A DNA stretch of 13,230 nt from Methanotrichaceae archaeon (GTDB lineage: Archaea > Halobacteriota > Methanosarcinia > Methanotrichales > Methanotrichaceae), in assembly GCA_963754945.1 (NCBI GenBank), contig CAVWIG010000043.1:1-13230 (forward strand). The letters are read 5' to 3'. A program made the translations under genes and the position numbers. The notes under the pieces were generated by a model, which saw only the letters and a list, made by a program, of their open reading frames with translations, searched no databases and was not told where the DNA came from. Positions 1-13,230 of the stretch are shown in pieces. The first letter of the stretch is position 1, and each line of letters starts with the position of its first letter.

Positions 1-31
1 GAAATCGGCTTTAATTTTAATTATTTCTAAT

Positions 32-250
32 CTATTTAAATAGCTCGTAGGAGATGGGTGTCTTGCATTTCTGGTGCAGCATACGAAAGCTAATCTCCTC
101 TCTAATATGATGGGGATTGCCCCTTACTGGAATGTTGAACAGGCCGGTGCTGATGCTGCCTGACCAGGTTAGATGGCTTGGAATTGGTTCGAGGGACTCT
201 TCTTCTTCGGCAGGCGCTATCTCAAGTTTGGGAGACTTTAACTTGGGCAT
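32..250 (-). pseudogene. ku: Truncated Ku (NHEJ DNA end-binding protein) N-terminal fragment
   Basis: From ATG at 250: MPKLK...LTWSGSISTGLFNIPVR...ISFRMLHQKCKTPISY, matching the prokaryotic Ku N-terminal signature W(S/K)G(S/A)ISFGLVNIPV...ISF(R/N)xLH. Stops after ~72 aa in AT-rich sequence, whereas Ku is normally ~250+ aa. A probable pair of compensating indels lies at ~95-123. Confidence 0.75.
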
Positions 251-729
251 ATACTGATAAAAGGAGTTTGAAGGGATAAATATTAATGGTTCTGGATTTG
301 CTGATCTGGCATCGATAAGCAACCTCAGGATCTTTCTTCATAAACCTTATCCTGTATTGTTGCGACGAAGGGGCAGTCTTAGGAGAATACTAGCGGCCCC
401 TATAATAATAGCAGAGCTTGAAGAGATTCGATCGCTACCAGGATACCTACAAATTGCACCAGTACAACGACCAGGTCGGCAAGAGTTCGTTGCGTCGGCA
501 AAAATTCTGCTGAGCAAATCCAGAAGATACATTTAAACTTCCGGCGGGCAATCTTGTAAAAGTAACGATTGATGGCTCGAAATAGAGACTGTTTCAGGCT
601 GTAGCCGCCGATTGAGTTCCACCCGCAAAATGGGCTTTCTGCTACTCAAATTGGGAAGGCATAGGCGAATCGCTACCAAGGTCGTGGACAATCGGGAATC
701 GATTGAATGAAGGTTCAGGAAGTGGATTG

Positions 730-1032
730 ATGGCGCACATATCCGTTGATAAAGAGAGCATCGCAGCCTTTTGCCGGAAACATCATATCCGGCGACTGGC
801 GCTTTTCGGGTCCGTGCTAAGAGAGGATTTCACCCCAGATAGCGATATCGACGTACTGGCAGATTTCGAGCCCGGACATTTTCCTGGACTTTTCGGTATT
901 TCTCGAATGGAGCGGGAGCTGTCCATCATCTTCGAAGGTCGCAGGATTGATCTGCGGACCGCTGAGGATCTGAGCCGCTATTTCCGCGATGATGTGTTGA
1001 AAGAGGCAGAGGTTCAGTATGCACAAGGATGA
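730..1032 (+). CDS. Minimal nucleotidyltransferase (MNT) antitoxin, MntA-like
   Basis: GSx10DxD motif ([18 protein letters not shown]), ~100 aa, overlaps the downstream HEPN gene. ATG at 730 preferred over the TTG at 703. Confidence 0.9.
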
Positions 1033-1354
1033 CCAAGTCCGCCTGCGACATATGCTCGATGCTGCGCATGAGGCGATGGCGTTCACCAAGAGTCGTACCC
1101 GTACAAGCCTGGATATAGATAGGATGCTTGTGCTGTCGCTGGTGAAAGAGATTGAGATCATCGGCGAGGCAGCTAACCAGGTATCAGAAACAACCAGAGA
1201 GCTAACGTCTACAATTCCGTGGGTGGATATCATCTCCATGCGAAACCGTCTGGTCCACGCCTATTTTGACATCAACCTGGAAATTCTCTGGAAAACTGTG
1301 CAAGACGATCTACCGCCACTGATTGTGGCTCTTGAAGATGTGCTGGAAAGATAA
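1019..1354 (+). CDS. HEPN/DUF86 ribonuclease toxin, HepT-like
   Basis: Rx4HxY motif (RNRLVHAY), EIIGEA and IPW motifs typical of DUF86; 111 aa; 14-nt overlap with the MNT gene. Confidence 0.9.
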
Positions 1355-1597
1355 TGCTCCAAGCGCATCCCCCTTCATCCATCCGACCTTCAGCAGCGCA
1401 GCCTCTGCATTCATCTTCCTGATGCTCTCCAGGTAGACATTGCGTGTCTTGTCGCCCTCTCTCCTGGAAGACATTCATTGGGTATAGGTTCTTGATCCTG
1501 ATAAGTCTCTCTGATTTCTCAATTTCCATACTATGAGATCCTCCAGCCTGGTTCGGAGCTTGAGATTCTCACCTTCGCCCCACGCCCAGCTCCCCCT
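1351..1597 (-). pseudogene. Degenerate small hypothetical gene
   Basis: A minus frame not in the ORF track reads GEGENLKLRTRLEDLIVWKLRNQRDLSGSRTYTQ*MSSRREGDKTRNVYLESIRKMNAEAALLKVGWMKGDALG, with an in-frame TGA at 1477-1475 and no intact start. From memory it resembles a multicopy Methanothrix small-protein family (..RLEDL.VW..YWMASWREGDKTRNV.LG..KM.AE.A..KA..MKAEALG). Confidence 0.5.
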
Positions 1598-1625
1598 TTA
1601 ATCCTCCAAGCCTCCCGCCTATAGT

Positions 1626-2137
1626 ATGGACTTCGAACTTCACTCTTCAGTCTCTCTCCGCCCCAGGTCCTTCAACGCCCTGGTAGCTCCAAACGAGATG
1701 TTCGCCAAGGCCCTCAACCGCACCTGAACCTGCAGCGGTTCAAGGTCCTCTACATCTGCGGCAACTACTCCAGCATCCTGAGCCGGATGGACCGCAAGTT
1801 CCAGGACCTGGAGATCCGCCGGGCCTTCACAGTCTTTCAGCTCATGACCTTTCTTGAAGAGGCCCGTCACTCCCTGATCATCATAGAGCACGATCCCCTG
1901 CTCAACGAGGACGCCGAAGGGATGATCGAGTACGTCTCCCAAGGGTTGCATGATGCTGCAAAAGAGGCCGCAGTCCTGCTTTACTCACCTGGAACTGATA
2001 CTTTCCTGGAGGATATGACCAGAAATGCCGACAGAGTATTCTACTTCGACGAGGGGCCGAGAGCTACGACGAAGCTTATTTCGAAAGCTTATCCAAAAGC
2101 GCAGAAGAGCCAGACCACCCTTGAGGTCTGGACATGA
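1626..2137 (+). pseudogene. Frameshifted conserved hypothetical protein (degenerate RecA/RadA-like fold suspected) with C-terminal PIP-box-like motif
   Basis: ATG 1626 gives MDFELHSSVSLRPRSFNALVAPNEMFAKALNR, then TGA at 1725. A -1 shift at ~1722 continues LNLQRFKVLYICGNYSSILSR directly into the ORF 1787-2137, which ends QTTLEVW. Consistent with a single-nt deletion (real or a sequencing error). Confidence 0.7.
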
Positions 2138-2182
2138 TCAAATCAATTTTCACAAATCAGCCAACATATCCATATCAAGAGA

Positions 2183-2773
2183 TTAATCTAGGCTCTTAAC
2201 CTCGATATCCTTTGCTATCTTCGGAATAACGTTGTGAGACGCTCCGATGAAGAGCAGGCCTGTCTCTCCGTCCTGGAGTGTCGAGCTAATGTTTTGGGCA
2301 ATGAACGCATCCCGATCTTCCATGAGGCGATCCTTAACCTGATCGTACCTGGCTCCAGCTTCAGTTCTCTCTTGGTCTGTTTTGGCCTCCAAGATGGCCT
2401 TGATATGACTGTACTCCTGCCTGAGAAGCTCTGGACTCTCAGTCGCCTCAATCCTTGCTCCCCGATCCATTAGCCTGGCGATTATCTGATAGTTCTTGCT
2501 TCCTTTCTCCGCCGTCTCACGCACGATCCTCTCGCCGAGCTCTCCCGCGCACGGCAGGCCGTCCTGGTATATCCTGACCTTATCAAGCTCCAGCCCCAGA
2601 CGATCCACCTCAACTTCCACCTCTTCCCAGAACTTCTCGATTCTCCGCTGGTTATCCTCCCACCTCTGCCTCCCCATCTTGGACACGCCCTCCTTCTCCA
2701 GGCCATCCTTCATTGACCCCATGTCCGATGGAGTGTGGACGATCCTTATCACCAACAGCTTTCTCAAAAGCAC
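2183..2773 (-). CDS. Conserved hypothetical protein (possible TraB/TIKI/EreA-like fold)
   Basis: 196-aa open frame with coding-like composition, directly downstream of the CoA-transferase gene. Motifs IVHT, YQDG, ATE, RDAFIA, LFIGASH resemble the H...E...RD...GxxH pattern of the TraB/TIKI/EreA superfamily (inference). Confidence 0.75.
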   Translation of the reverse strand: MLLRKLLVIRIVHTPSDMGSMKDGLEKEGVSKMGRQRWEDNQRRIEKFWEEVEVEVDRLGLELDKVRIYQDGLPCAGELGERIVRETAEKGSKNYQIIARLMDRGARIEATESPELLRQEYSHIKAILEAKTDQERTEAGARYDQVKDRLMEDRDAFIAQNISSTLQDGETGLLFIGASHNVIPKIAKDIEVKSLD

Positions 2774-2821
2774 CCCCCCAAGAGCTTCGAACAGCCCCTA
2801 CGTTGAATGAATCCCTGCAGA

Positions 2822-4717
2822 TCAACCCTCGATGAACCTCATGCGCATCTCGTAGACTCCTTCCTCGCGTCTCTTTTCTATTTCGAACCCCATCTTCTCG
2901 AAGAGGCGGAGCATCGCCTTGTTCTCCACCAGAACCTCGGCCGTGAAACCAAGCAGGCCCTGCTTCCTGGCCAGGTATGTTAGATAGGATAGCAGTTCAG
3001 AGCCCACCCCTTGGTTCTGGCACTGGTCCTTTACCACCAAGGCTGCCTCTGCAGTGTGAATGTCCCTGTTCAGCTCGTACTGGCCAAGGCCGATTATAGT
3101 CTCCTTTTCCTTCCCTTGAATGACCGCTAATATCTCCATCTTCTTGGTGTAGTCCACAGCGACGAAATCCTGGAGCCTCTTGTGGGGCATGTCCTTTCTT
3201 TGAGAGAAGAAACGCAGGTACATGCTGTCCCCAGAAAGAGCGTAGAAGAAGTCCTTCAGCATCTGTTCGTCTGTGATTTTCACCGGCCGGAGAAGGAGGT
3301 CAAGACCTTGCTTTGTTGTCCTGTAGGTCTCCAGCTCCTCAGGGTACACTCCCTTCTCGCCGGGAACAAACGCCTGATCCTTGTAGACCAGAGTTCGTTT
3401 TTTGGCCTCCTCCAGCAGCCAGGGCCTGAACATGGGGTGGGCAATGGATATCAGGTCCATGGCCCTCTCCCGGATGTTCTTGCCGTGCAGGTAGGCTATA
3501 CCGTACTCAGTGACCACGTAGTGCACATCTCCCCTCGTGAGGGTCACTCCTGCTCCCTCCTGCAGGACGGGGACTATCCTCGATACTGTATCGTTCAGGG
3601 CAGTTGAGGGCAGGGCCAGAATTGTCCTGCCGCCAGGTGCCAGCACGGCACCGCGCATGAAGTCTGCCTGGCCTCCAATGCCGCTGTAGAAAGTCCCCCC
3701 CAACGACTCGGCAGTGGCCTGGCCTGTCAGGTCTATCTCCATGGCGCTATTAATGGCGGTCATCAGGTGGTTTCGGGCGATGATCAGGGGGTTGTTGGTG
3801 TAATCGATCCTCTTGAACTCCACAGTCGGATTCTCATCGAGAAAATCGTAGGTTTCTTTGCTGCCCATGCAGAAAGAAGCTATGGTCTTGCCCGGATTGT
3901 GGCTCTTCTTTGAGTTGTTGACCACACCCGTCCTCATGAGGTTCACTATGCCGTCGCTCAAGAGCTCCGTGTGAACACCTAGGTTCTTTTTTCCGCCTAG
4001 GTTTGAAACAACAGCGTCGGGTATGATGCCGTATCCAACCTGGATGGTTGAGCCGTCTTCGATTATGCGGGCGACGTAGCTGCCTATTCTCTTGACTATG
4101 TCGCTAGGCGCTTCCACAGCGTACTCCAGCATCGGCTCATCATGTGGCAGCAGAAAGTCGATGTCTTCTATGTTTATGAACCCGTCACCGTGCGTCCTGG
4201 GCATGTTGGAGTTGACCTGAGCTATGACCAGGGTTGCCTTTTCCGTAGCAGCCTTGACGATGTCTATGCTAATCCCGAGGCTCACATAGCCGTGCTTGTC
4301 CGGCAATGAGGTCTGTACCAAGGCTACGTCTATCGGTATTATTTTCCTCCGGAACAGATCGGGAACTGCGGATAGAAAAATTGGGGTGTAGTCAGCAGCA
4401 CCACGGTTTACTGAGTTCCTGGTACTGTCGCCCACGAAAAAAGAGTCAAGGCGAAAGTTCTCCTGGAGCTTCTCATCAGTGTAAGGTGCAACGCCCAAAG
4501 TCCATACGTGGATCAGCTCGGTGTCGAAGAAGGCCTTTGGATTGCTTCTGACGTAGTTCACCAGAGCTTGAACGAGGTACTGGGGCTCACCGCAGCCGGT
4601 GCCTATGAATATCCGGTCGCCAGCGTGAATATGGTGAAACAGCTCCTCCTCTGATGTGAACTTCTCCGGCCATGCCGTTTTCATCCTCTCAAGGTTTCTC
4701 AAGCCCTCAGTGTCCAT
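2822..4717 (-). CDS. Acetyl-CoA hydrolase/family I CoA-transferase fused to a C-terminal GNAT acetyltransferase domain
   Basis: GCGEPQ, QVNSNMPRTHGD, HTELLSDG (catalytic Glu), SGIGGQADFMRGA and VVTEYGIAYL motifs. C-terminal GNAT with QNQGVG acetyl-CoA loop and NKAMLRLFEKMGF. Start set at ATG 4717 after a GAGGAG RBS (631 aa). Confidence 0.92.
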   Translation of the reverse strand: MDTEGLRNLERMKTAWPEKFTSEEELFHHIHAGDRIFIGTGCGEPQYLVQALVNYVRSNPKAFFDTELIHVWTLGVAPYTDEKLQENFRLDSFFVGDSTRNSVNRGAADYTPIFLSAVPDLFRRKIIPIDVALVQTSLPDKHGYVSLGISIDIVKAATEKATLVIAQVNSNMPRTHGDGFINIEDIDFLLPHDEPMLEYAVEAPSDIVKRIGSYVARIIEDGSTIQVGYGIIPDAVVSNLGGKKNLGVHTELLSDGIVNLMRTGVVNNSKKSHNPGKTIASFCMGSKETYDFLDENPTVEFKRIDYTNNPLIIARNHLMTAINSAMEIDLTGQATAESLGGTFYSGIGGQADFMRGAVLAPGGRTILALPSTALNDTVSRIVPVLQEGAGVTLTRGDVHYVVTEYGIAYLHGKNIRERAMDLISIAHPMFRPWLLEEAKKRTLVYKDQAFVPGEKGVYPEELETYRTTKQGLDLLLRPVKITDEQMLKDFFYALSGDSMYLRFFSQRKDMPHKRLQDFVAVDYTKKMEILAVIQGKEKETIIGLGQYELNRDIHTAEAALVVKDQCQNQGVGSELLSYLTYLARKQGLLGFTAEVLVENKAMLRLFEKMGFEIEKRREEGVYEMRMRFIEG

Positions 4718-4923
4718 CTCGTTTCTCCTCGCAGCGCACCCACTGTATATGTCATTCAAGTCAGTTCAACTGCACAATTGTATCGTTGATTTAGCTATCT
4801 TTAAGGATTATCTTCTAGGACTTCATCGTCTTTAACTCTATCTATATCGGCATCTTGTGAAAGGGAGAAGGACTTTGAACACGAGTGCATCAACCTGAAC
4901 TTCCTAGTTTCGAGGCTCAACAC

Positions 4924-4953
4924 CATGAGTCTTAATGTCATGAGTCTTAACGT
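4924..4953. repeat. 15-bp tandem duplication CATGAGTCTTAAYGT x2
   Basis: catgagtcttaatgt (4924-4938) followed by catgagtcttaacgt (4939-4953), 14/15 identical, in the divergent intergenic region. Confidence 0.8.
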
Positions 4954-5088
4954 TAAATTTTGTCTTATTGATCTGAGAAGGTACAAATACGATTAGAACC
5001 AAAATAAAGGTGTTATCGACGTATCCAAAATAATGAGAAGATATTGAACACTTCATTAGAAACATCTGCACCATAGATCCACTGGAAT

Positions 5089-5346
5089 ATGGAGGCGAAT
5101 TATACTTTGTCGGATATAGTGCCGGACGCTGAGCTGGATTGCATCGGGCTGTTCTGCCCCTTGCCCATTGCCAGGACCAAGGAGGAGATAGAGAACATCG
5201 TGGTTGGTCAGGTTCTCAAGGTGGAAGCCGACGACCCAGCTGCAGAGGAGGACATCGCCCGCTGGGCTAAGCGGGCAGGTCACCAGGTCCTCAAGTTCGA
5301 AAAGTCCGGGAACATCATCACCTTCTTCATAAAAAGAATGAAGTAG
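5089..5346 (+). CDS. tusA: TusA/SirA-family sulfur carrier protein
   Basis: LDCIGLFCPLP (CPxP motif), GQVLKVEADDPAAEEDIARW; ~80 aa. True start may be TTG 5107 (GGAGG at 5091-5095). Confidence 0.93.
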   Translation: MEANYTLSDIVPDAELDCIGLFCPLPIARTKEEIENIVVGQVLKVEADDPAAEEDIARWAKRAGHQVLKFEKSGNIITFFIKRMK

Positions 5347-5439
5347 AAACGGGGGACGGATAGAGTAGTCGAGACGTGGTGGGGAGAATAGAGCGGCATT
5401 AGTGGCGCATTACGAATTGGAGGAAAAGGTGAGGATAAT

Positions 5440-5799
5440 ATGAGCACCATACTTTATGTGCAGACCAGCGGCGTAGACACGCCTGAGAGAACCTATGCCC
5501 CTTTCATCCTTGGTATGACCGCCAGGGCAATGGATGTCGAGGCAGAGATATTTTTCATGATCAAAGGCATAACCATCCTCAAGAAGGGCGAAGCAGAGAA
5601 GGTGAAGTTGGGAAGCTTCCCCAGCCTCAAGGAGGTCATCGACCAGGCAGTAACGGCTGGGGTCAAGCTGTACATCTGCGAGCAGAGCACCCAGCTTTTC
5701 GGCATGGCGAGGGGTGACTTCATCCCTGAGGCTAAGGTTGCAGGAGCGGGGACTCTGAACGACCTTGCCCTTGATGCTGACTCTGTTATAACCTTCTAG
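5440..5799 (+). CDS. DsrE/DsrF/TusD-family sulfur relay protein
   Basis: 119 aa; PERTYAPF, IFFMIKG, GVKLYICEQS (conserved Cys) and VAGAGT motifs typical of DsrE-like proteins; AGGTGA/GAGG RBS upstream. Confidence 0.85.
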   Translation: MSTILYVQTSGVDTPERTYAPFILGMTARAMDVEAEIFFMIKGITILKKGEAEKVKLGSFPSLKEVIDQAVTAGVKLYICEQSTQLFGMARGDFIPEAKVAGAGTLNDLALDADSVITF

Positions 5800-5855
5800 A
5801 GTGAATAACTCTAGAGAGATAAATAGGACTGAAAAGAATTTAGGCTGGAGAGCAA

Positions 5856-7010
5856 ATGTGTGGAATATATCTGGACTATCAATCGGCCATGCCGGTGGAC
5901 ACAAGGGTGTTGGAGTTTGCGGAGAGGTATCTCGCCAAGGAGTTCGGAAATCCATCAGCCCTTCACTCCGTCGGCCTGGCTGCCAAATCGGCCGTTGAGG
6001 AGGCCAGAACGAAAGTGGCAGAGCTCATCAACGCCCCAGACCCTTCCAACATAATCTTCACCGGCAGTGCCACCGAGGCAAACAACTTGGCCATCAGGGG
6101 AACAGCCCAAAGAAACGCTGCTAAAGGGAAGAAGCTCTTGGCCAGTGCCATCGAACACATCTCCGTTCAGAACGCCATGAAGGAACTACAGAAAGGAGGC
6201 TTCGAGCTTTCACTGGCTCCCGTGGACTCTACGGGCATTGTCGATCTGGCGGTCCTTGAAAACCAGCTTTCTAAAGACACGATCGTAACCTCTGTAATGT
6301 ACGCCAACAGCGAAATCGGCACCATCGAGCCTATAAGAGAGATAAGCCAAATGGTCCACGATAAGGGCATGTTCCTGCACGTGGATGCCGTGGCCGCCCA
6401 GGGAAAGATTTCCATCGACGTCCAGAAAGACGGCATAGACCTGTTGACAATCTCGTCAAATGACATGTATGGGCCCCAGGGCGCAGGGGCACTGTACGTT
6501 AACCCCAAGGTAAAGCTTCAACCGACACAGCTTGGGGGCGGACAGGAAAAGGGCCTCCGTCCGAGCACGGAGAATCTTTTCGCCATTGCCGGGATGGGCG
6601 AAGCTGCTCGTCTGGCTAAACTGGAGATGAACCAGGAGAGCGACAGGCTGCGGCACATAAGAGACGATCTGATCAAAGAGCTCCTGAAGATCGATGGGGC
6701 TTATCTGACGGGCCATGCTACTATTAGACTGCCTCACCATGCCAGCTTCAGGTTTAGCCGTATAGAGGGCGAGAGCATTCTGCTCACCATGGACGCGATG
6801 TTCAATATTCAGGTATCCACGGGGTCGGCCTGCTCCTCAAGGACCCTGGAGCCTAGCCACGTCCTTCTGGCCATCGGGCTCAAGCACGAGCAGGCCCACG
6901 GCTCGATGGTGACGACCCTGGGAAAGTATAACAGCCCGGACCAGATACCTGTGATATCAAAGGCGGTCAACCAGACGGTGCAGAGGTTGAGGGCGCTGTC
7001 TCCATTATAA
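5856..7010 (+). CDS. iscS: IscS/NifS-like protein lacking the PLP-binding lysine (Archaeoglobus IscS-type)
   Basis: FGNPS, IIFTGSATEANNLA, IEH, GGGQE and STGSACSSRTLEPSHVL (Cys326) are group I desulfurase motifs, but SSNDMYGP replaces SxHKxYGP (Asp203, codon 6462-6464). Confidence 0.93.
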   Translation: MCGIYLDYQSAMPVDTRVLEFAERYLAKEFGNPSALHSVGLAAKSAVEEARTKVAELINAPDPSNIIFTGSATEANNLAIRGTAQRNAAKGKKLLASAIEHISVQNAMKELQKGGFELSLAPVDSTGIVDLAVLENQLSKDTIVTSVMYANSEIGTIEPIREISQMVHDKGMFLHVDAVAAQGKISIDVQKDGIDLLTISSNDMYGPQGAGALYVNPKVKLQPTQLGGGQEKGLRPSTENLFAIAGMGEAARLAKLEMNQESDRLRHIRDDLIKELLKIDGAYLTGHATIRLPHHASFRFSRIEGESILLTMDAMFNIQVSTGSACSSRTLEPSHVLLAIGLKHEQAHGSMVTTLGKYNSPDQIPVISKAVNQTVQRLRALSPL

Positions 7011-7073
7011 ATGTAAGATTGATCTAAATCAATTGAAGTCGATAATCTAACCCGAGTCAAGGTGACTAGCAAA

Positions 7074-7514
7074 ATGGCACAAGTAGGTTACAGCAAGAAA
7101 GTGATGGAGCACTTCATGAACCCCAGGAATGTTGGGGTGATCGAGAACCCGGACGGCTACGGTAAGGTCGGCAACCCTGTCTGCGGGGACCTAATGGAGA
7201 TCTTCATCAAGGTCAGGGACGACAAAATAGACGACATCAAGTTCAGGACCTTCGGCTGCGGTTCGGCAATAGCTGTGAGCAGTATGGTCACTGAGATGGC
7301 CAAGGGTAAGCCTCTGGATGAGGCCATGAAGATCACTAGGAAAGACGTAGCCGACGAGCTCGAAGGCTTGCCACCCCAGAAGATGCACTGCTCCAACCTT
7401 GGCGCGGATGCCCTTCACGCAGCCATCAAGAACTACTGGGTCAAGATCGGGAAGATAAAGCCAGAAGAGGCTAAGCCTGAAGGCGAAGAGGGAGAGACTT
7501 GTTCCACTGAATGA
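7074..7514 (+). CDS. iscU: Fe-S cluster scaffold IscU/NifU-N
   Basis: YSKKVMEHFMNPRNVG, GNPVCGD, FGCGSAIA and LPPQKMHCS: three scaffold Cys plus Asp/His ligands. Start ATG 7074 after an AGGTGA RBS. Confidence 0.95.
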   Translation: MAQVGYSKKVMEHFMNPRNVGVIENPDGYGKVGNPVCGDLMEIFIKVRDDKIDDIKFRTFGCGSAIAVSSMVTEMAKGKPLDEAMKITRKDVADELEGLPPQKMHCSNLGADALHAAIKNYWVKIGKIKPEEAKPEGEEGETCSTE

Positions 7515-7710
7515 GACTTGACGAATCGACCGATCCGTCTGGTTAAATCATTCTTTTTATCCCAATCCCAATATTCTCCAACGTCAATACGTGAGCAACA
7601 AACAAAATCGTGGTTAAGGAATTGATCGGTCAAGTAAAGGCATCATTCGCTGCGTCTCCAAGTCCTGCTGATATGGCATGGCATCTTCAACGATCACAAA
7701 AGCTGTTTCA

Positions 7711-8112
7711 TTAAGCCAGTCTAATGCAAGTCTCAATGGCAGTGCGTAAATCATCAAGCCAAATGGGCTTGGCGAGGTATCCGTCCATGCCTGCTTCAAG
7801 GCATTTCTCCCGATCGCCTCTCAGGGCGTAAGCAGTAATGGCAATTATCCTTGGCCCGTCGTTGGGCCAGCGTTGGCGGATGATTCGAGTGGCCTCCAGG
7901 CCGTCCATCTCAGGCATCTTGACGTCCATGAGCACTACATCGTATGTATGGTGTTCCATGGCCTGCAGGGCCTCTATTCCGTTTGCTACTGCGTTCGCCG
8001 TGTAGCCCAGGTGCTCGAGCATGAGCATGGTTACCTTCCTGTTTGACGGCTCGTCTTCCGCTAGCAATATTCTTAAAGAGCTACCGCTATTCTGGCAGCT
8101 TTTATCTAACAT
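7711..8112 (-). CDS. Stand-alone response regulator receiver (CheY-like) protein
   Basis: ILLAEDE, VVLMDVKMPEMDGLEA (phospho-Asp), IAITAYA and YLAKP motifs; 133 aa with no output domain. Confidence 0.9.
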   Translation of the reverse strand: MLDKSCQNSGSSLRILLAEDEPSNRKVTMLMLEHLGYTANAVANGIEALQAMEHHTYDVVLMDVKMPEMDGLEATRIIRQRWPNDGPRIIAITAYALRGDREKCLEAGMDGYLAKPIWLDDLRTAIETCIRLA

Positions 8113-8338
8113 TCCCCTAACCCCAACCTCAAAAAGGGCTGCAAAATCATTGTAAGGTATCTATCGCGTCGAACAGTTAAAAATCTATGGGAATCTATGT
8201 TACGCAGGAATCTTACTGGTTTGATCGGAGATGATAAGATACTTTTCAACTCTGCTATTCGTTTGTCTTGATCAAAAAATTGGTTTCTCAAAATACTCTC
8301 TAAAAAAATTTGGAATTTCTAAATGACAAAACTTGCTG

Positions 8339-9583
8339 TTAAACCCATCCTCTTACTTTCATCGTTTCTACCAGCCTCTTGAAGGCTACGATATAGGCTG
8401 CCTGCCTCATCGTCACCTTGTACTCCCTCGATGCGCTAAGCACCGACCCATACGCCTTCACCATCTTCTTGTCCAGAAGCTTGCGAACATCTGATTCGTC
8501 CCACTGCCACATATCGAAGTTCTGGACCATCTCGAAGTAGGAGACGATAACTCCGCCAGCGTTGCAGAGAATGTCTGGTAAGACGTGTTTGCCCTCTTTG
8601 CCTAAGATATCGTCGGCCTCAGGCGTTGTAGGGCCGTTTGCAAATTCTGCCACTACTTTGGCCTTAATTCGGGCGGCGTTATCTCCAGTGATTGCTCCCT
8701 CGAGGGCCGCAGGAATTAGAATATCCACATCCAGCTCCAGTAGATCCTCATTGGAAATAGTTTTGGTTCCAGGAAAACCGACTACTGAGCCGTTCTCTGC
8801 CTTGTGCTTCCGGACAGCCTCGGGGTTCAACCCCCCCTCGCTGATGATTCCACCCTTGCTGTCGCTGACTGCAACGATTTTGCAGTCAAAATCAGGAGCG
8901 AGCCTAGCCGAATGATAACCGACATTTCCATAGCCCTGAATTGCAATCCTCGCTTCCTTAAGCTCCAGGCCGATCTCCTTCGCGGCCTCCCTGACGGCAA
9001 ACCAGCCTCCTAGCGCTGTTGCCTCCTCCCGGCCCGCCGAGCCACCGAGAAATAAGGGCTTTCCCGTGACAGAGCCGAAGACGTTCTCGCCCGTTATGTT
9101 GGAGTATTCGTCCATCATCCAGGCCATTACCTGGGCGTTGGTGCTGACATCCGGGGCAGGAATGTCCTTGTGCGGTCCGATGATGTCGCGGATTCCTCGA
9201 ACGTAAGCCCTACTCAGCCTTTCTAGCTCGCCCTTCGACAACTCCTTTGGATTGCAGATCACGCCTCCCTTTGCTCCGCCTAGAGGCAAGTCATGCAGGG
9301 CGCACTTCCAGGTCATGAGGGCAGCTAGGGCCCGGACGCTCTCCAGGTTCTGTTCAGGATGGAATCTGACGCCGCCTTTGGTCGGGCCCAGAACATCGCT
9401 GTACTGAACTCTGAAGCCCTGAAATACCTTCAGCTTCCCGTTATCCATGCGCACTGGAAGCGACACCTGAAGCTCCCTTGCTGATGTGCAAAGTATTTCA
9501 AGGACGTTCTCGTCAAGGCCTAGGTCGCAGCCGCACTTGGCGATATGGGCCTGGACCATAAGAAGAAGGTTTGAGTCTCTCAT
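8339..9583 (-). CDS. gdhA: Glu/Leu/Phe/Val dehydrogenase, probable glutamate dehydrogenase
   Basis: GPTKGGVRFHP, MTWKCA, GGAKGG, DIPAPDV, VTGKP, QGYGNVG (Rossmann), EFANGP and PDILCNAGGVIVSYFE motifs; AGGAG RBS. Confidence 0.93.
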   Translation of the reverse strand: MRDSNLLLMVQAHIAKCGCDLGLDENVLEILCTSARELQVSLPVRMDNGKLKVFQGFRVQYSDVLGPTKGGVRFHPEQNLESVRALAALMTWKCALHDLPLGGAKGGVICNPKELSKGELERLSRAYVRGIRDIIGPHKDIPAPDVSTNAQVMAWMMDEYSNITGENVFGSVTGKPLFLGGSAGREEATALGGWFAVREAAKEIGLELKEARIAIQGYGNVGYHSARLAPDFDCKIVAVSDSKGGIISEGGLNPEAVRKHKAENGSVVGFPGTKTISNEDLLELDVDILIPAALEGAITGDNAARIKAKVVAEFANGPTTPEADDILGKEGKHVLPDILCNAGGVIVSYFEMVQNFDMWQWDESDVRKLLDKKMVKAYGSVLSASREYKVTMRQAAYIVAFKRLVETMKVRGWV

Positions 9584-9781
9584 TTCTCCTAGGAGTGCTC
9601 TGTTTGGACTTAAGCATTTTCAAGGAGAATGTGTTGTGGGGTTATTAATAAATAATGTAAGAATAATAGTAGATGAAGGCTGAGAGCCCCAGGAAGGAGG
9701 ATTGCCGGATGACCTGTAGGCTCAACAGTCTGGTGGGACTCTACCATCTGGATCGATGTTCTTCACACTTAGAATAACTAC

Positions 9782-9796
9782 TTGTATATAGTACAA
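9782..9796 (-). promoter_or_regulatory. Putative TATA box of gdh embedded in a TTGTA-N5-TACAA palindrome
   Basis: Plus strand ttgtatatagtacaa; contains TATATA, ~200 nt upstream of the gdh start. Confidence 0.35.
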
Positions 9797-10254
9797 TTTA
9801 ACTCTTTTGGTATAATTAACAAGTATGCACATCAAGAGGATGTCATACAAGCCAGATAACCAAACAAACTTAACAGGACTTCAATCCAGGAATAAATTAT
9901 TAAAGGCATTAATGATAGAACAAATCAATTTCGTAGTGGCTTGTATTGGAGTTGCCAGTCACTTATGGATGATTGATTTTTTTTCCCGGCAGAATCGCCA
10001 ATCGCAGCCGGACGATGCATCCTGCCTGAAAAGGCTTTTCCGGCAGTGAATTTATGAAAATTCCTGATCTGCCTTTGCCCTGTATCGGCATAGAAACCCT
10101 AGTTTGCGTTCTGAAGTCATCTGAGATCGCGATGGGATTGGAATGAGTCTGGAAGTCGGAACGCTAGTTTGAGGCAATGGAATATCTTGATAGCACTTTC
10201 ATGTGACGACAGGTTGCGATATTAAAATTATTACAAAACCACTTAATAGTAGCT

Positions 10255-10332
10255 TGGTAGCGGGGAGTAGATTTGAACTACTGGTCTACGGGTTATGAGC
10301 CCGTCGGGATTTCCTGACTACCCCACCCCGCT
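10255..10332 (-). tRNA. Initiator tRNA-Met (CAT), intron-less, CCA encoded
   Basis: Reverse complement AGCGGGG TG GGGTAGTCAGGAAATCCC G ACGGG CTCATAA CCCGT AGACC AGTAG TTCAAAT CTACT CCCCGCT A CCA folds as a cloverleaf. A1-U72 and three consecutive G-C pairs in the anticodon stem are archaeal initiator hallmarks. TTATAAA box at ~10375-10369. Confidence 0.97.
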
Positions 10333-10541
10333 TCTCTGCACGCTGTATACCTATCCACCTTAATACTACTTTATAAGGCTTGCGTATCGTAGTTTGTACA
10401 ACAATCATGAGCAACGATATAAAGAGTGCTTTCCATGTGGAATTTGATTAAATGGCAGAACTCTGTCACTCTGTCACGTCGATGGAAAATTATAAATCAC
10501 TTCAAGTAGATTATGCCAGAGTACTGGATGGGGGATCAAAA

Positions 10542-11246
10542 ATGATGTACCTTTCAAATTACCGATTGGTCCTGCTGGCAATGGTCTTTATTTTGCTTGG
10601 CTCTTCGGCCATTGCTCAGGACAGTTCTGCACTCACGTTTGGATCGAAGGTTAAGCTTTCAGACTCGGATGAGTCCAAGGCACTTTGTCGGTTTTTCGTC
10701 GATCCCGAATTTGCATTTTATGATGCGAACATTAAAGGGATTTTCGATTCGGGAGATCCCGTTTACATACACATAAACCCGACAGAGCCTACGGTAAGCG
10801 AGAACGATGTTCGCCTTACTTCGTTTGGCAGCTTCCCACCCGGCAGTCAGGTTCGTTTAACCGACCCAGATGTCGGGTACCCATTATCCCAATTCGGAAG
10901 TAACGGATTTCCACGGGCTGAAGTCAGGTACTTCGATGTAGATGGTGACAAGGCATATAGCCTGAACGATCCTGTCTACCTTGACTTCAATCCTGGCACA
11001 GTGAGATCAGGAGATATCAGGCTGACCAACTATATGGGATATGAGGCAGGCACCAGAGTCCGTGATTCGGACTTAGACAGCGGAAAGCCAACAACTATAC
11101 TTCCTGGTATGCTCAATTTCTTCAACTCCAACGGAGATATAAACAACGGAGGGTATGCCATATACGATTCAGGTGATATAATTTATATGGACACCCAGGC
11201 ACCATTCCTTACCGTAACAATCAACGACATCAGGTTGTCGAGTTGA
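10542..11246 (+). CDS. Secreted three-repeat protein (probable sheath/cell-envelope protein, paralog 1)
   Basis: Start at ATG 10542 (GGGGGA upstream) gives a signal peptide (..RLVLLAMVFILLGSSAIA|Q). Three repeats G[ST]xVxx[ST]DxD...DpVY...[NG]D[VI]RL, shared with the two downstream genes. Confidence 0.85.
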   Translation: MMYLSNYRLVLLAMVFILLGSSAIAQDSSALTFGSKVKLSDSDESKALCRFFVDPEFAFYDANIKGIFDSGDPVYIHINPTEPTVSENDVRLTSFGSFPPGSQVRLTDPDVGYPLSQFGSNGFPRAEVRYFDVDGDKAYSLNDPVYLDFNPGTVRSGDIRLTNYMGYEAGTRVRDSDLDSGKPTTILPGMLNFFNSNGDINNGGYAIYDSGDIIYMDTQAPFLTVTINDIRLSS

Positions 11247-11274
11247 TTCAGATATTTTGTTCTGCTGAATTCAA

Positions 11275-11321
11275 AGCAAGAGCCAACGCGAATACGCGCT
11301 GGCTTGCTGATTTTTTTCTTT
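11275..11321 (+). terminator. Hairpin plus T-tract after paralog 1
   Basis: AGCA..AGCCA-a-CGCG-aata-CGCG-c-TGGCT-TGCT stem (11275-11308) followed by TTTTTTTCTTT. Confidence 0.65.
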
Positions 11322-11443
11322 GAAATTTTGTCCACCGAAGCTCAGCATCTCTTCAGTCAGATCTGCCCTGAAATTATTCTCAGTATTATCTTTTATTCAT
11401 AATTCGAATGTCCTCGCTTTTTCTTGAATCTTCTAAACTACCA

Positions 11444-11480
11444 AAAAATACTTATATTAATACAATAAAGAGGGATATGC
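11444..11480 (+). promoter_or_regulatory. Archaeal promoter (A-rich BRE, TTATAT TATA box, ATGC initiator element)
   Basis: aaaaatacTTATATtaa (TATA 11452-11457) with ATGC at 11477-11480, at methanogen-type spacing; predicted TSS ~G11479. Confidence 0.55.
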
Positions 11481-11704
11481 TGTAAGAGAAGCCCTAGCCA
11501 TAGTTTGGCTAGAGCTAAGGGGCTGCTGATTTGTTTGGCCATATAAAATATCGGGGGGGGTAATAAATTAGGTAGACCGTAGGCGCGTCTATCGAGTCAA
11601 ATATGGCGAATTGAGATGCCGCAGGATCGATGTGGCGTTAGAATCTCTTTGGTTCTGACAATCAATGACGCGTATTGACTGCAGATTAGTTTCTGAGCAT
11701 ATTT
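11473..11704 (+). ncRNA. Putative structured 5' leader / cis-regulatory RNA (no family recognised)
   Basis: Eight mutually compatible nested helices found by eye, many with G-U pairs that work only on the + strand (see findings). Confidence 0.65.
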
Positions 11705-11741
11705 GATGAAATATTACTAGGATTAAATCGGAGGAGGTGTT

Positions 11742-12443
11742 ATGTTGAAAAAGTCAATAAGGGCTTGTATTGTGCTTGCAAGCTTGGTTATGCTAATAGG
11801 AACGAGCCTAGCTACGTCGTACGAGTTTGGCTCGAAGGTACGGGCTGGAGACACGGATGTCAACGATGCGCTTATTCCCAATGGAGGTCTGGTCGTAGGT
11901 TTCATGGATCTACCGCCACTAAACGCATTAGTCCCTGATCCGAATGATGTGGCTTACCTACATCAAGGCGCTCTTCCTGGGGCCATTTTACCAGGTGACG
12001 TCAGGCTTTCGTCGTTTGCAGGTTTCCCCGCTGGGACCAGAGTAATGACAACCGACCCTGATGCCGGACGCCCGATAAACGCATTTCCAATAACAGCTAA
12101 TTGGGCATACTCAGCACTGTTTGATGGAGTGCCACCACAACCTTGTGATATCGAAGATCCCGTATATTGGGCAATTAAAGCAGCATCAGGAGCACATTCA
12201 GTTGCTGATTTGAGGTTGTCAAAAATTCAGAACCTTAATCCCGGAACTTGGGTGAAAGATAGCGATGTCGACTTCAATAATCCCATACAACTCTTGAATA
12301 ACGCTTCACCAATGATCCGTGATCTCAACGGTAACGGGCAGTATGATGACTCGGATTCAGTGTACCTGAAAATAAATAATGCATCACCCACTGAAGTGCA
12401 ACCAGGAGATCTGCGCCTCATAGCAATTAGTGGCCATAGCTAG
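11742..12443 (+). CDS. Secreted three-repeat protein (probable sheath/cell-envelope protein, paralog 2)
   Basis: Strong GGAGGAGGTG RBS; signal peptide MLKKSIRACIVLASLVMLIGTSLA; repeats YEFGSKVRAGDTD / AGTRVMTTDPD / PGTWVKDSDVD, each closed by D[VL]RL. Confidence 0.9.
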   Translation: MLKKSIRACIVLASLVMLIGTSLATSYEFGSKVRAGDTDVNDALIPNGGLVVGFMDLPPLNALVPDPNDVAYLHQGALPGAILPGDVRLSSFAGFPAGTRVMTTDPDAGRPINAFPITANWAYSALFDGVPPQPCDIEDPVYWAIKAASGAHSVADLRLSKIQNLNPGTWVKDSDVDFNNPIQLLNNASPMIRDLNGNGQYDDSDSVYLKINNASPTEVQPGDLRLIAISGHS

Positions 12444-12461
12444 GTATGGAGGTACAACAAA

Positions 12462-13205
12462 ATGAAAGATCTGATTAAAGCTTGCGTATTGTGCGCAAGT
12501 TTGATACTGATGTTCAGTATCGGCAATGCTGCAGCATATGATTTTGGCTCGAAAGTCATATCTGGAGACGCCGATGAAGGGAAGATCCTTGAAAGCTTCC
12601 AGGCTGCTGGACTTACTCCAACCGTTGCCTTTCTGAGCTTGTCAAACCCGACCACGTTCGACGCAAACTCAGTTGTCTACATAAATTTCGCCGGCAACAT
12701 GAGGGTCAACGTCGGCGACCTGAGGCTCACCAATTACAGCAATCTGTATGCCGCTGGTACAAAGGTTAAGAGCGGCGATCTGGACTTCGGGACCGGACCA
12801 CTTACGCCTTTCGCTAACCCAGCCGGGCAGATATACTTCGGACCTCGATTCTCCGCTCCGGACTATGTCTTAGACGATTCAGTATACCTCAAGACATCGC
12901 CTCTGCCCCTCGTAACAGGCCTCAATGACGTAAGGCTGAGCAGCCCAGTAGGCGCCATTCAGGCTGGCTCCAAGGTCAGCGACAACGATGGTGACTGGAA
13001 CACGCCCTTGACGCTGATGACAAGTGCGGCAGCAGGCGTGGTCAACCTTGGACCAGTAGCTGAGCTGAGGTTCTACAACATAGACGGCGATGTCAATGCC
13101 CTGGGGGCACCTGTCTACGGCTCGGAGGACCCGGTCTATCTGGATGTTTCCTTCCCAGGATTCGCAACCTATGGAATAGTGTCGCCCAACGACGTTCGAC
13201 TCTAG
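12462..13205 (+). CDS. Secreted three-repeat protein (probable sheath/cell-envelope protein, paralog 3)
   Basis: GGAGGT RBS; signal peptide MKDLIKACVLCASLILMFSIGNAAA; repeats YDFGSKVISGDAD / AGTKVKSGDLD / AGSKVSDNDGD; ends NDVRL. Confidence 0.9.
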   Translation: MKDLIKACVLCASLILMFSIGNAAAYDFGSKVISGDADEGKILESFQAAGLTPTVAFLSLSNPTTFDANSVVYINFAGNMRVNVGDLRLTNYSNLYAAGTKVKSGDLDFGTGPLTPFANPAGQIYFGPRFSAPDYVLDDSVYLKTSPLPLVTGLNDVRLSSPVGAIQAGSKVSDNDGDWNTPLTLMTSAAAGVVNLGPVAELRFYNIDGDVNALGAPVYGSEDPVYLDVSFPGFATYGIVSPNDVRL

Positions 13206-13210
13206 GCTTA

Positions 13211-13230
13211 GAGCTCGCGAAAGCGGGCTC
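13211..13230 (+). terminator. GNRA-capped 3' hairpin (terminator or mRNA stabiliser)
   Basis: GAGCUCGC-GAAA-GCGGGCUC: 8-bp stem with one U-G pair, just after the stop codon; the window ends before any T-tract can be seen. Confidence 0.6.

Follow-up and report, generated by a model that had tools for sequence, protein, structure and literature searches.

A lysine-less IscS of the Archaeoglobus fulgidus class encoded with tusA, dsrE, and iscU in a Methanotrichaceae archaeon: a possible reverse sulfur relay

Lys, Arg, His, and Cys are named as the conserved catalytic residues of cysteine desulfurases, the Arg having a role with the substrate carboxylate (PMC8918507). The IscS of Archaeoglobus fulgidus (AfIscS) has Asp199, binds PMP or PLP, is inactive, and may merely lend its Cys as a ligand; its D199K variant still carries PMP (PMC8918507). 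In the 4EB5 structure, the IscS cysteine is a ligand of the cluster, and free sulfide has been proposed as the sulfur source (PMC8918507, PMC13066941). Cluster formation by A. fulgidus IscS-IscU without desulfurase activity has been named an open question (PMC8918507). The minimal IscS-IscU system is described without TusA or DsrE partners in the accessible text of PMC13066941, and the upstream dsrE and tusA genes go unmentioned in the accessible portions of accounts of the A. fulgidus system. When A. fulgidus iscS2U2 was tried without partners in an Escherichia coli Fe-S mutant, it failed to complement, even when sulfide was supplied; what iscS2U2 was missing in E. coli is a question that the authors raise (10.1101/2024.03.20.586028). 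Canonical Methanothrix iscSU likewise failed to complement (10.1101/2024.03.20.586028), so the failure of the A. fulgidus genes may have another cause.

The isc1 cluster of Methanosarcina acetivorans consists of MA0810 (SirA-like), MA0809 (DsrE), MA0808 (IscS1), and MA0807 (IscU1). IscS1 is without the catalytic lysine, formed inclusion bodies, and has been suggested to act like AfIscS (PMC7585200). The text of that paper terms the neighbors of isc1 of "unknown function," and the legend of its Fig. S1 gives MA0809 as DsrE and MA0810 as SirA-like, beside iscS1 (PMC7585200). The tusA-dsrE-iscS-iscU arrangement is therefore already published, without a relay reading in the accessible parts of the paper. 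Our literature searches, with most subscription journals and preprint supplements outside their scope, returned no paper giving TusA or DsrE a role with a Lys-less IscS. Here, we describe the same four gene types in a 13,230-nucleotide stretch, the window, from a Methanotrichaceae archaeon (GCA_963754945.1, contig CAVWIG010000043.1, positions 1 to 13,230).

Residues, fold, and phylogeny of the window IscS

The gene at 5856..7010 (+) is a single open frame of 384 aa. Its product is homologous to group I cysteine desulfurases and is of the lysine-less A. fulgidus type. We read its motifs from the DNA. SSND stands in place of SxHK (6453..6464, +), as S200-S-N202(AAT)-D203(GAC), with Asp203 (6462-6464) at the Schiff-base lysine position and Asn202 at the His position. 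DAVA replaces DxxQ (6384..6395, +), with Asp177 retained and Ala180 (GCC) for Gln, and NSE, N151-S152(AGC)-E153, replaces NNE (6306..6314, +) at a site that varies within the class. Val352 (GTG; 6909..6911, +) occupies the position of the substrate-carboxylate arginine in the motif G-S350-M-V352-T-T, and the N-terminal motif is D7-Y-Q-S-A-M12. The mobile cysteine loop STGSACSSRTLEPSHVL (6816..6866, +) is intact, with Cys326 (TGC) at 6831-6833. A sequence-only reading of this DNA had listed these substitutions under the same residue numbers and had described a full-length frame with an intact Cys loop, and the DNA agrees on all of it. That reading also spoke of a coordinated loss of PLP and substrate residues. 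The Schiff-base lysine and the substrate contacts are indeed gone, but T73, H101, D177, S200, and T238 are kept. Thus, the loss concerns the Schiff-base lysine and substrate contacts and not the entire cofactor pocket. Here we take T73, S200, T238, Q180, and N152 to be cofactor or substrate contacts, as in E. coli IscS. Two features of active group I desulfurases, the SxHK lysine and the substrate-carboxylate arginine, are absent, and H101, the loop cysteine, and the IscS fold are present.

The protein belongs to Pfam Aminotran_5. When the window protein alone was scanned, it fell below every listed NCBIfam desulfurase cut-off, with a best score of 405 bits versus 530.75 for TIGR03402. The earlier warning against the label "cysteine desulfurase" was apt, as that label is attached to homologs of this protein. 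Identity as a group II desulfurase (SufS/CsdA) was rejected: the SufS profile gave 127 bits against a cut-off of 475, and the loop is of the group I type and not of the short RSGHHC type.

The best PDB sequence match was A. fulgidus IscS2-IscU (PDB 4EB5, 4EB7, and 4HVK; D199K variant, 4R5F), at an E value of 4.5e-127. The 4EB5 motifs are SSND, DATA, DYTSAK, and GTLLLT, with NNE kept, and the window SSND aligns with the SSND of 4EB5 and the SSNK of the D199K variant. We modeled the structure from 91 sequences; a model from 14 close sequences reached a pLDDT of only 56 and was set aside. The 91-sequence prediction had a pLDDT of 92.7, and residues 325-330 were the only segment under 50. Its top-ranked fold matches were 4R5F, 4EB7, 4HVK, and 4EB5 (TM 0.93-0.95, about 50-53% identity), and the model matched E. 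coli IscS with a TM of 0.94. We also built a quick IQ-TREE phylogeny from 104 thinned rows, with no bootstrap and no formal clade test. In it, 55 Lys-less rows formed one branch (SH-aLRT 95) that included the window protein and L060, a locus with one difference from 4EB5 in 378 aligned residues; across the whole tree, the Lys/Lys-less label requires four changes. The sequence-only reading had placed the protein in the same class as AfIscS and had proposed an alignment and a phylogeny. Both bear out the placement, the former by shared losses of Lys, His, Gln, and Arg and the latter by a single clade, and the top sequence and fold matches point the same way.

A second Lys-less group sits apart from the SSND clade on this tree. 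Its members (L111, L260, L269, L300, P0150, P0177, and P0189) have motifs such as SAHQ, AGNQ, and AGDQ and often lie by iscU and sometimes by tusA. An independent loss of the lysine is possible for this group.

We compared 72 Lys-bearing with 134 Lys-less full-length group I genes (L111 excluded). H202, K203, Q180, N152, R352, T11, and C326 were each present in 72/72 Lys-bearing genes. Among the 134 Lys-less genes, K203, R352, and H202 were found in none, Q180 in 2, and T11 in 1, and the loop Cys326 was retained in all 134. The cofactor-pocket positions were also held in the Lys-less set: H101 and T73 in 134/134, S200 in 132/134, D177 in 126/134, and position 238 as T in 106/134 and as Ser in 26/134. 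The sequence-only reading had counted Asn152Ser among the loss motifs. This part does not stand as a class feature, because N152 is kept in 58/134 Lys-less proteins and in 4EB5; Ser152 is ruled out as a class marker, and NSE is lineage drift. Position 208 is Lys in 71 of the 72 canonical proteins and Gln in the window protein, and no conserved compensating lysine was apparent at the active-site motifs in our alignments.

Orthologs (68-93% identity), all free of stops, were found in 14 of 24 genomes of the same family, and the lysine is missing at 15/15 family loci (14 SSND, 1 SSNE). Lysine at this position in close relatives, for which the sequence-only reading had suggested a search, occurred in none of the 120 best homologs listed (75-95% identical); Asp203 and Cys326 were present in all 120, and those with source names are Methanotrichaceae or Methanothrix. 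It had also suggested a dN/dS comparison across relatives, and this pointed to purifying selection: the window gene against 14 orthologs gave 0.06-0.16 by the Nei-Gojobori method over 11 computable pairs, with 3 pairs saturated and low dS only in two same-genus pairs (0.11 and 0.09). We conclude that the change is neither an error nor a recent lesion, because of the 120 homologs with Asp203 and these dN/dS values.

The assembly does carry some frameshifts (2 of 107 orthologs were split, and nine apparent stops all lay at alignment ends), which might favor reading the gene as a decaying pseudogene or a sequencing artifact. That reading is rejected by the full-length frame, the Asp203 shared by the best homologs listed, the dN/dS values, and the confidently predicted IscS fold, and we regard it as having virtually no chance of being right. 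A contig from a DNA run matches 6320-6559, over codon 203, with zero differences, but this run may be the source sample and so is not independent.

From its sequence, its place in the tree, and its fold, we can say with very little doubt that the window IscS is a pseudo-desulfurase that has been maintained and that belongs to the A. fulgidus class. By analogy with AfIscS, it very probably has no cysteine desulfurase turnover, because the PLP-Lys aldimine cannot form and the cysteine carboxylate cannot be bound. It probably binds PMP or PLP noncovalently, as AfIscS does. An IscS pseudo-enzyme is in itself known biology, and the practical value of this result lies in correcting the "cysteine desulfurase" label on many homologs.

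The tusA-dsrE-iscS-iscU operon and its occurrence

The iscS gene is the third of four genes, all on the + strand, in the order tusA, dsrE, iscS, iscU. The tusA gene (5089..5346, +; Pfam TusA, E 8.9e-24) encodes a SirA-like sulfur carrier of 85 aa, or 80 aa from a TTG at 5104, with a D-C-x-G-x-x-C-P-x-P motif whose CPxP cysteine is at 5155-5157. The DsrE-family protein (5440..5799, +; Pfam DsrE, E 4.9e-21) has 119 aa and a single cysteine, Cys80 (5677-5679). The gene for the IscU scaffold (7062..7514, +; likely start ATG 7074) scores above the TIGR03419 cut-off, and C37, D39, C62, H105, and C106 of its product are intact. The locus thus shows two A. fulgidus-type features, a Cys loop that is intact and a neighboring iscU with a complete ligand set. 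In the 88%-complete genome, these are the sole matches to TusA (PF01206), DsrE, and IscU. The sequence-only reading had proposed that the protein is kept as a scaffold or ligand donor; this is supported insofar as the protein is of the A. fulgidus class, but it is incomplete, as it omits the upstream tusA and dsrE that travel with the class.

The acidic tail of the window IscU (7455-7514) ends in an extra cysteine (EGETC). Most family orthologs have such a tail, as does the IscU encoded next to the 4EB5-type gene. Beyond the IscU core, a cysteine was found in 50/119 proteins encoded beside Lys-less genes (fused domains counted) versus 7/37 beside canonical genes. Several operon IscUs carry long C-terminal fusions (L050, L061, L161, L167; L074, L141, L188, L189, L195, L198, L199, L218), either of about 335 aa with a GxGxxG start resembling that of flavoproteins or of about 150 aa of another domain. 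A built-in electron supply is a possible role for these domains.

A scan for bacterial promoters and terminators was at chance level (3 and 3 found versus 2.2 and 2.5 expected). The repeat finder returned no repeat family upstream of tusA; it missed a short direct repeat, CATGAGTCTTAA, present in two copies 15 bases apart at 4925-4952, and similar repeats occur in both same-genus relatives. In an expression search, no run contained half of the operon's sequence words. Three RNA-library runs gave contigs, for the most part from relatives, that overlap portions of each of the four genes. These contigs span the tusA-dsrE and iscS-iscU junctions and leave 4760-4961 and 7487-7688 uncovered. We did not count these contigs as evidence because contigs cannot show transcription, strand, or a single transcript.

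Elsewhere in the window, a gene at 2822-4759 (-), divergent from the operon, encodes an acetyl-CoA hydrolase/transferase fused to a C-terminal GNAT acetyltransferase. Two overlapping small open reading frames (ORFs) of 109 and 111 aa at 703-1354 (+) resemble, by their motifs, a toxin-antitoxin pair of a minimal nucleotidyltransferase and a HepT-like protein. Three tandem paralogous ORFs (264, 233, and 247 aa; about 30% identical) at 10452-13205 have hydrophobic N termini and repeated D-x-R-L and F-G-S-K-V motifs, and they had no match in Pfam or NCBIfam.

The same neighbors accompany the family orthologs. At the 15 family loci, dsrE was present in 15/15, tusA in 15/15 (one a weak partial match), and iscU in 14/15, the one miss being at a contig end. 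We then surveyed the phylum with 139 loci picked by score rank, with flanks of 1.5 or 3 kb, counting as a neighbor any gene within 2.5 kb. By this measure, tusA or dsrE lay near 63/66 Lys-less genes versus 1/74 Lys-bearing genes, and the single Lys-bearing exception adjoins a Lys-less operon. Both carriers were present at 48 of the 66 Lys-less loci and neither at 3. Pfam, used to check our own search profiles, found TusA or DsrE in 0/63 small ORFs upstream of Lys-bearing genes, such ORFs being present at 43/63 loci. A separate metagenome sample had tusA next to 0/65 Lys-bearing genes, with one weak DsrE match, and next to 3/16 members of the second Lys-less group; the difference points the same way, but tusA is missing from most of that group.

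When GTDB genomes were scanned by motif, there were at least 120 matches; of the 120 listed, 80 had flanks, and 69 genes had at least 1 kb of upstream DNA. The matches listed include Bathyarchaeia, Asgard archaea, Thermoplasmata, Hadarchaea, Deltaproteobacteria, Aminicenantes, Actinomycetota, and others. Among the 69, tusA or dsrE was present at 65, both at 47, neither at 4, and iscU at 52. A few loci occur in both sets, whose counts are not summed. Since the SSND Lys-less genes form one clade, these neighbor counts are not independent and amount to about one origin with long retention. The carrier cysteines are conserved as well: the CPxP Cys in 124/124 operon TusAs and the DsrE Cys in 106/107 operon DsrEs, with one gap, and the IscU ligands of the operons are conserved wherever aligned. 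Over 80 loci, pairwise divergence of TusA and IscU tracks that of IscS (Spearman 0.69 and 0.71; best permutation, 0.15), and DsrE tracks it weakly (0.25). Because linked genes share their history, this indicates co-inheritance only.

Some loci depart from the common arrangement. The locus matching 4EB5 (L060) has dsrE and no tusA within 3 kb. Two loci (L048 and L049) have three tandem tusA genes followed by dsrE-iscS-iscU, with Gln for Asp at the lysine position. Two others (L078 and L079) have a Lys-less iscS without tusA, dsrE, or iscU within 3 kb, and it is the sole strong family match in their genomes.

Sulfur supply to IscU

The explanation that we prefer, to which we give about an even chance, is that DsrE and TusA pass sulfane sulfur to Cys326 of the window IscS and thence to IscU; both the transfer and its direction are our inference. 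In this four-gene Fe-S module, the IscS would be the hub at which the partners dock. Cys80 of DsrE and the CPxP cysteine of TusA would take sulfane sulfur from an inorganic pool (polysulfide or thiosulfonate), and TusA would dock on the IscS dimer and load Cys326 as a persulfide, a flow that would be the reverse of the E. coli flow from IscS to TusA. The mobile loop would then hand the sulfur on to IscU and would transiently ligate the newly formed [2Fe-2S] cluster. Which way sulfur flows cannot be read from gene order. TusA and DsrE homologs have been shown to be persulfurated by polysulfide at conserved cysteines and to exchange sulfur, and one archaeal TusA took no sulfur from polysulfide (10.1101/2023.12.18.572138). 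The DsrE3A of Metallosphaera cuprina passes thiosulfonate to TusA (PMC4175335).

A predicted complex of the IscS dimer with TusA lends weak support to docking. It scored 0.59 versus 0.01 for the best control, its runs shared at least 87% of contacts, and the partner had a pLDDT of 86. The mark for such scores was reached by 116/157 solved complexes and 2/215 mismatches, and 18 of the 157 and both mismatches reached it at 0.60 or less. The already solved E. coli complex of IscS with TusA, 3LVJ, may have shaped this prediction.

It is also conceivable, if doubtful, that the protein is a ligand-donor scaffold only, with Cys326 stabilizing a [2Fe-2S] cluster on IscU, sulfide entering directly from the cytoplasm, and TusA and DsrE acting as co-regulated sulfur buffers or in another thio-cofactor pathway. 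The cysteine ligand in 4EB5 and the free sulfide proposed for that system (PMC8918507, PMC13066941) fit this view, as do the few Lys-less loci where both carriers are missing. However, it leaves unexplained why tusA and dsrE lie within a few hundred bases of this iscS in many phyla and are absent beside Lys-bearing genes, and iscS2U2 supplied with sulfide did not complement in vivo (10.1101/2024.03.20.586028). We think it rather unlikely that the relay is still fed by cysteine, with a canonical IscS or SufS loading TusA or DsrE and the window IscS channeling sulfur to IscU, or that sulfur leaves IscU and IscS for TusA, as when clusters are recycled. IscS to TusA is the known direction in E. 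coli (PMC13066941). Members of the host family that have the Lys-less protein also carry a canonical iscS, and iscU adjoins 2/19 of these paralogs; in two other families, 7/7 genomes contain a second match to PF00266 that is strong, judged by score alone. Against this, the desulfurase-type genes at strong scores in five single-contig genomes of one family are all Lys-less. In each of these genomes a transaminase ranks next, and another three matches are SepCysS or MfnA (8 of 33 other matches scanned). Therefore, sulfur in these five cannot come from a canonical IscS or SufS. Among 11 more genomes of that family, 9 had no second match at an E value of 1e-35 or better, and the remaining 2 had a distant SufS-like protein far under the cut-off. 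In the window's own genome, both Lys-bearing desulfurase genes, the canonical group I iscS (G000:C39 near 59613) and a SufS-like gene (G000:C44 near 26800), have one extra base relative to both same-genus relatives, compared with a background of 2 split orthologs in 107. These frameshifts may be assembly errors; if they are real, the Lys-less gene is the only intact family member in this genome.

Slow PLP-dependent reactions that do without the lysine, with cysteine or a different compound as substrate, would suit the retention of T73, H101, D177, and S200 in 126 to 134 of the 134 Lys-less proteins and of T or Ser at position 238 in 132, and a 2013 study reportedly saw AfIscS activity after PLP addition. 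The binding of PMP or PLP by AfIscS is in keeping with this as well (PMC8918507). However, the carboxylate-binding Arg is gone in 134/134, AfIscS is reported to be inactive, and the D199K variant still has PMP (PMC8918507), and we consider such chemistry improbable.

Returning to the reverse relay, we tentatively extend it, at somewhat less than even confidence, to a wider proposal. The tusA-dsrE-iscS-iscU genes may form an unrecognized system of Fe-S assembly that does not depend on cysteine and that belongs to anaerobic archaea and to some bacteria. In it, a dead desulfurase would run the IscS-TusA persulfide exchange backwards, from DsrE/TusA sulfane sulfur to the Cys loop to IscU. The carriers would be the parts missing from the failed A. 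fulgidus iscS2U2 complementation, and the module would have made cysteine desulfurases dispensable in this strain with both Lys-bearing genes frameshifted. The genome also has a SufB-type gene, and many carriers of the module have apparently normal desulfurases, so the module need not be the entry point for sulfur. Specialists would not find the pseudo-enzyme surprising, but the operon opens to direct test a question already raised in the literature. The tusA-dsrE link supplies two named candidates for the missing parts of A. fulgidus-type cluster assembly. If the proposal is true, it adds a route for inorganic sulfur into Fe-S clusters in anaerobes of many phyla.

Comparison with known systems

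The closest system of known structure is that of A. fulgidus. AfIscS and the window IscS have in common the loss of the Lys, His, Gln, and substrate Arg, a degraded ATT motif, an intact Cys loop, and an iscU immediately downstream. They differ in that AfIscS has NNE and the GPK lysine, whereas the window protein has NSE and GPQ; Lys-bearing desulfurase genes are also present in the window's genome. M. acetivorans isc1 has the same four gene types as the window (PMC7585200). Its IscU1 is 24.2 kDa, versus about 146 aa in the window, and we liken MA0808 to the window IscS by its published description.

The canonical IscS, NifS, and MisS proteins (E. coli IscS, 1P3W; IscS-TusA, 3LVJ; IscS-IscU, 3LVL) share with the window protein the fold, the long mobile Cys loop, and the partners IscU and TusA. 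However, they need the PLP-Lys aldimine and the Arg, and their persulfide is formed from cysteine and handed to TusA. No tusA or dsrE adjoins the canonical copies of archaea, apart from the one of 74 noted above. The DsrE-TusA relays of sulfur oxidizers (M. cuprina DsrE3A-TusA and sHdr-linked sets) have a DsrE and TusA pair with conserved carrier cysteines, as here, a likeness at the level of the DsrE family. These relays feed Hdr- or Dsr-type oxidation and are listed with no iscS-iscU link in the accessible text (PMC4175335), whereas here the pair lies directly upstream of a Lys-less iscS and its iscU.
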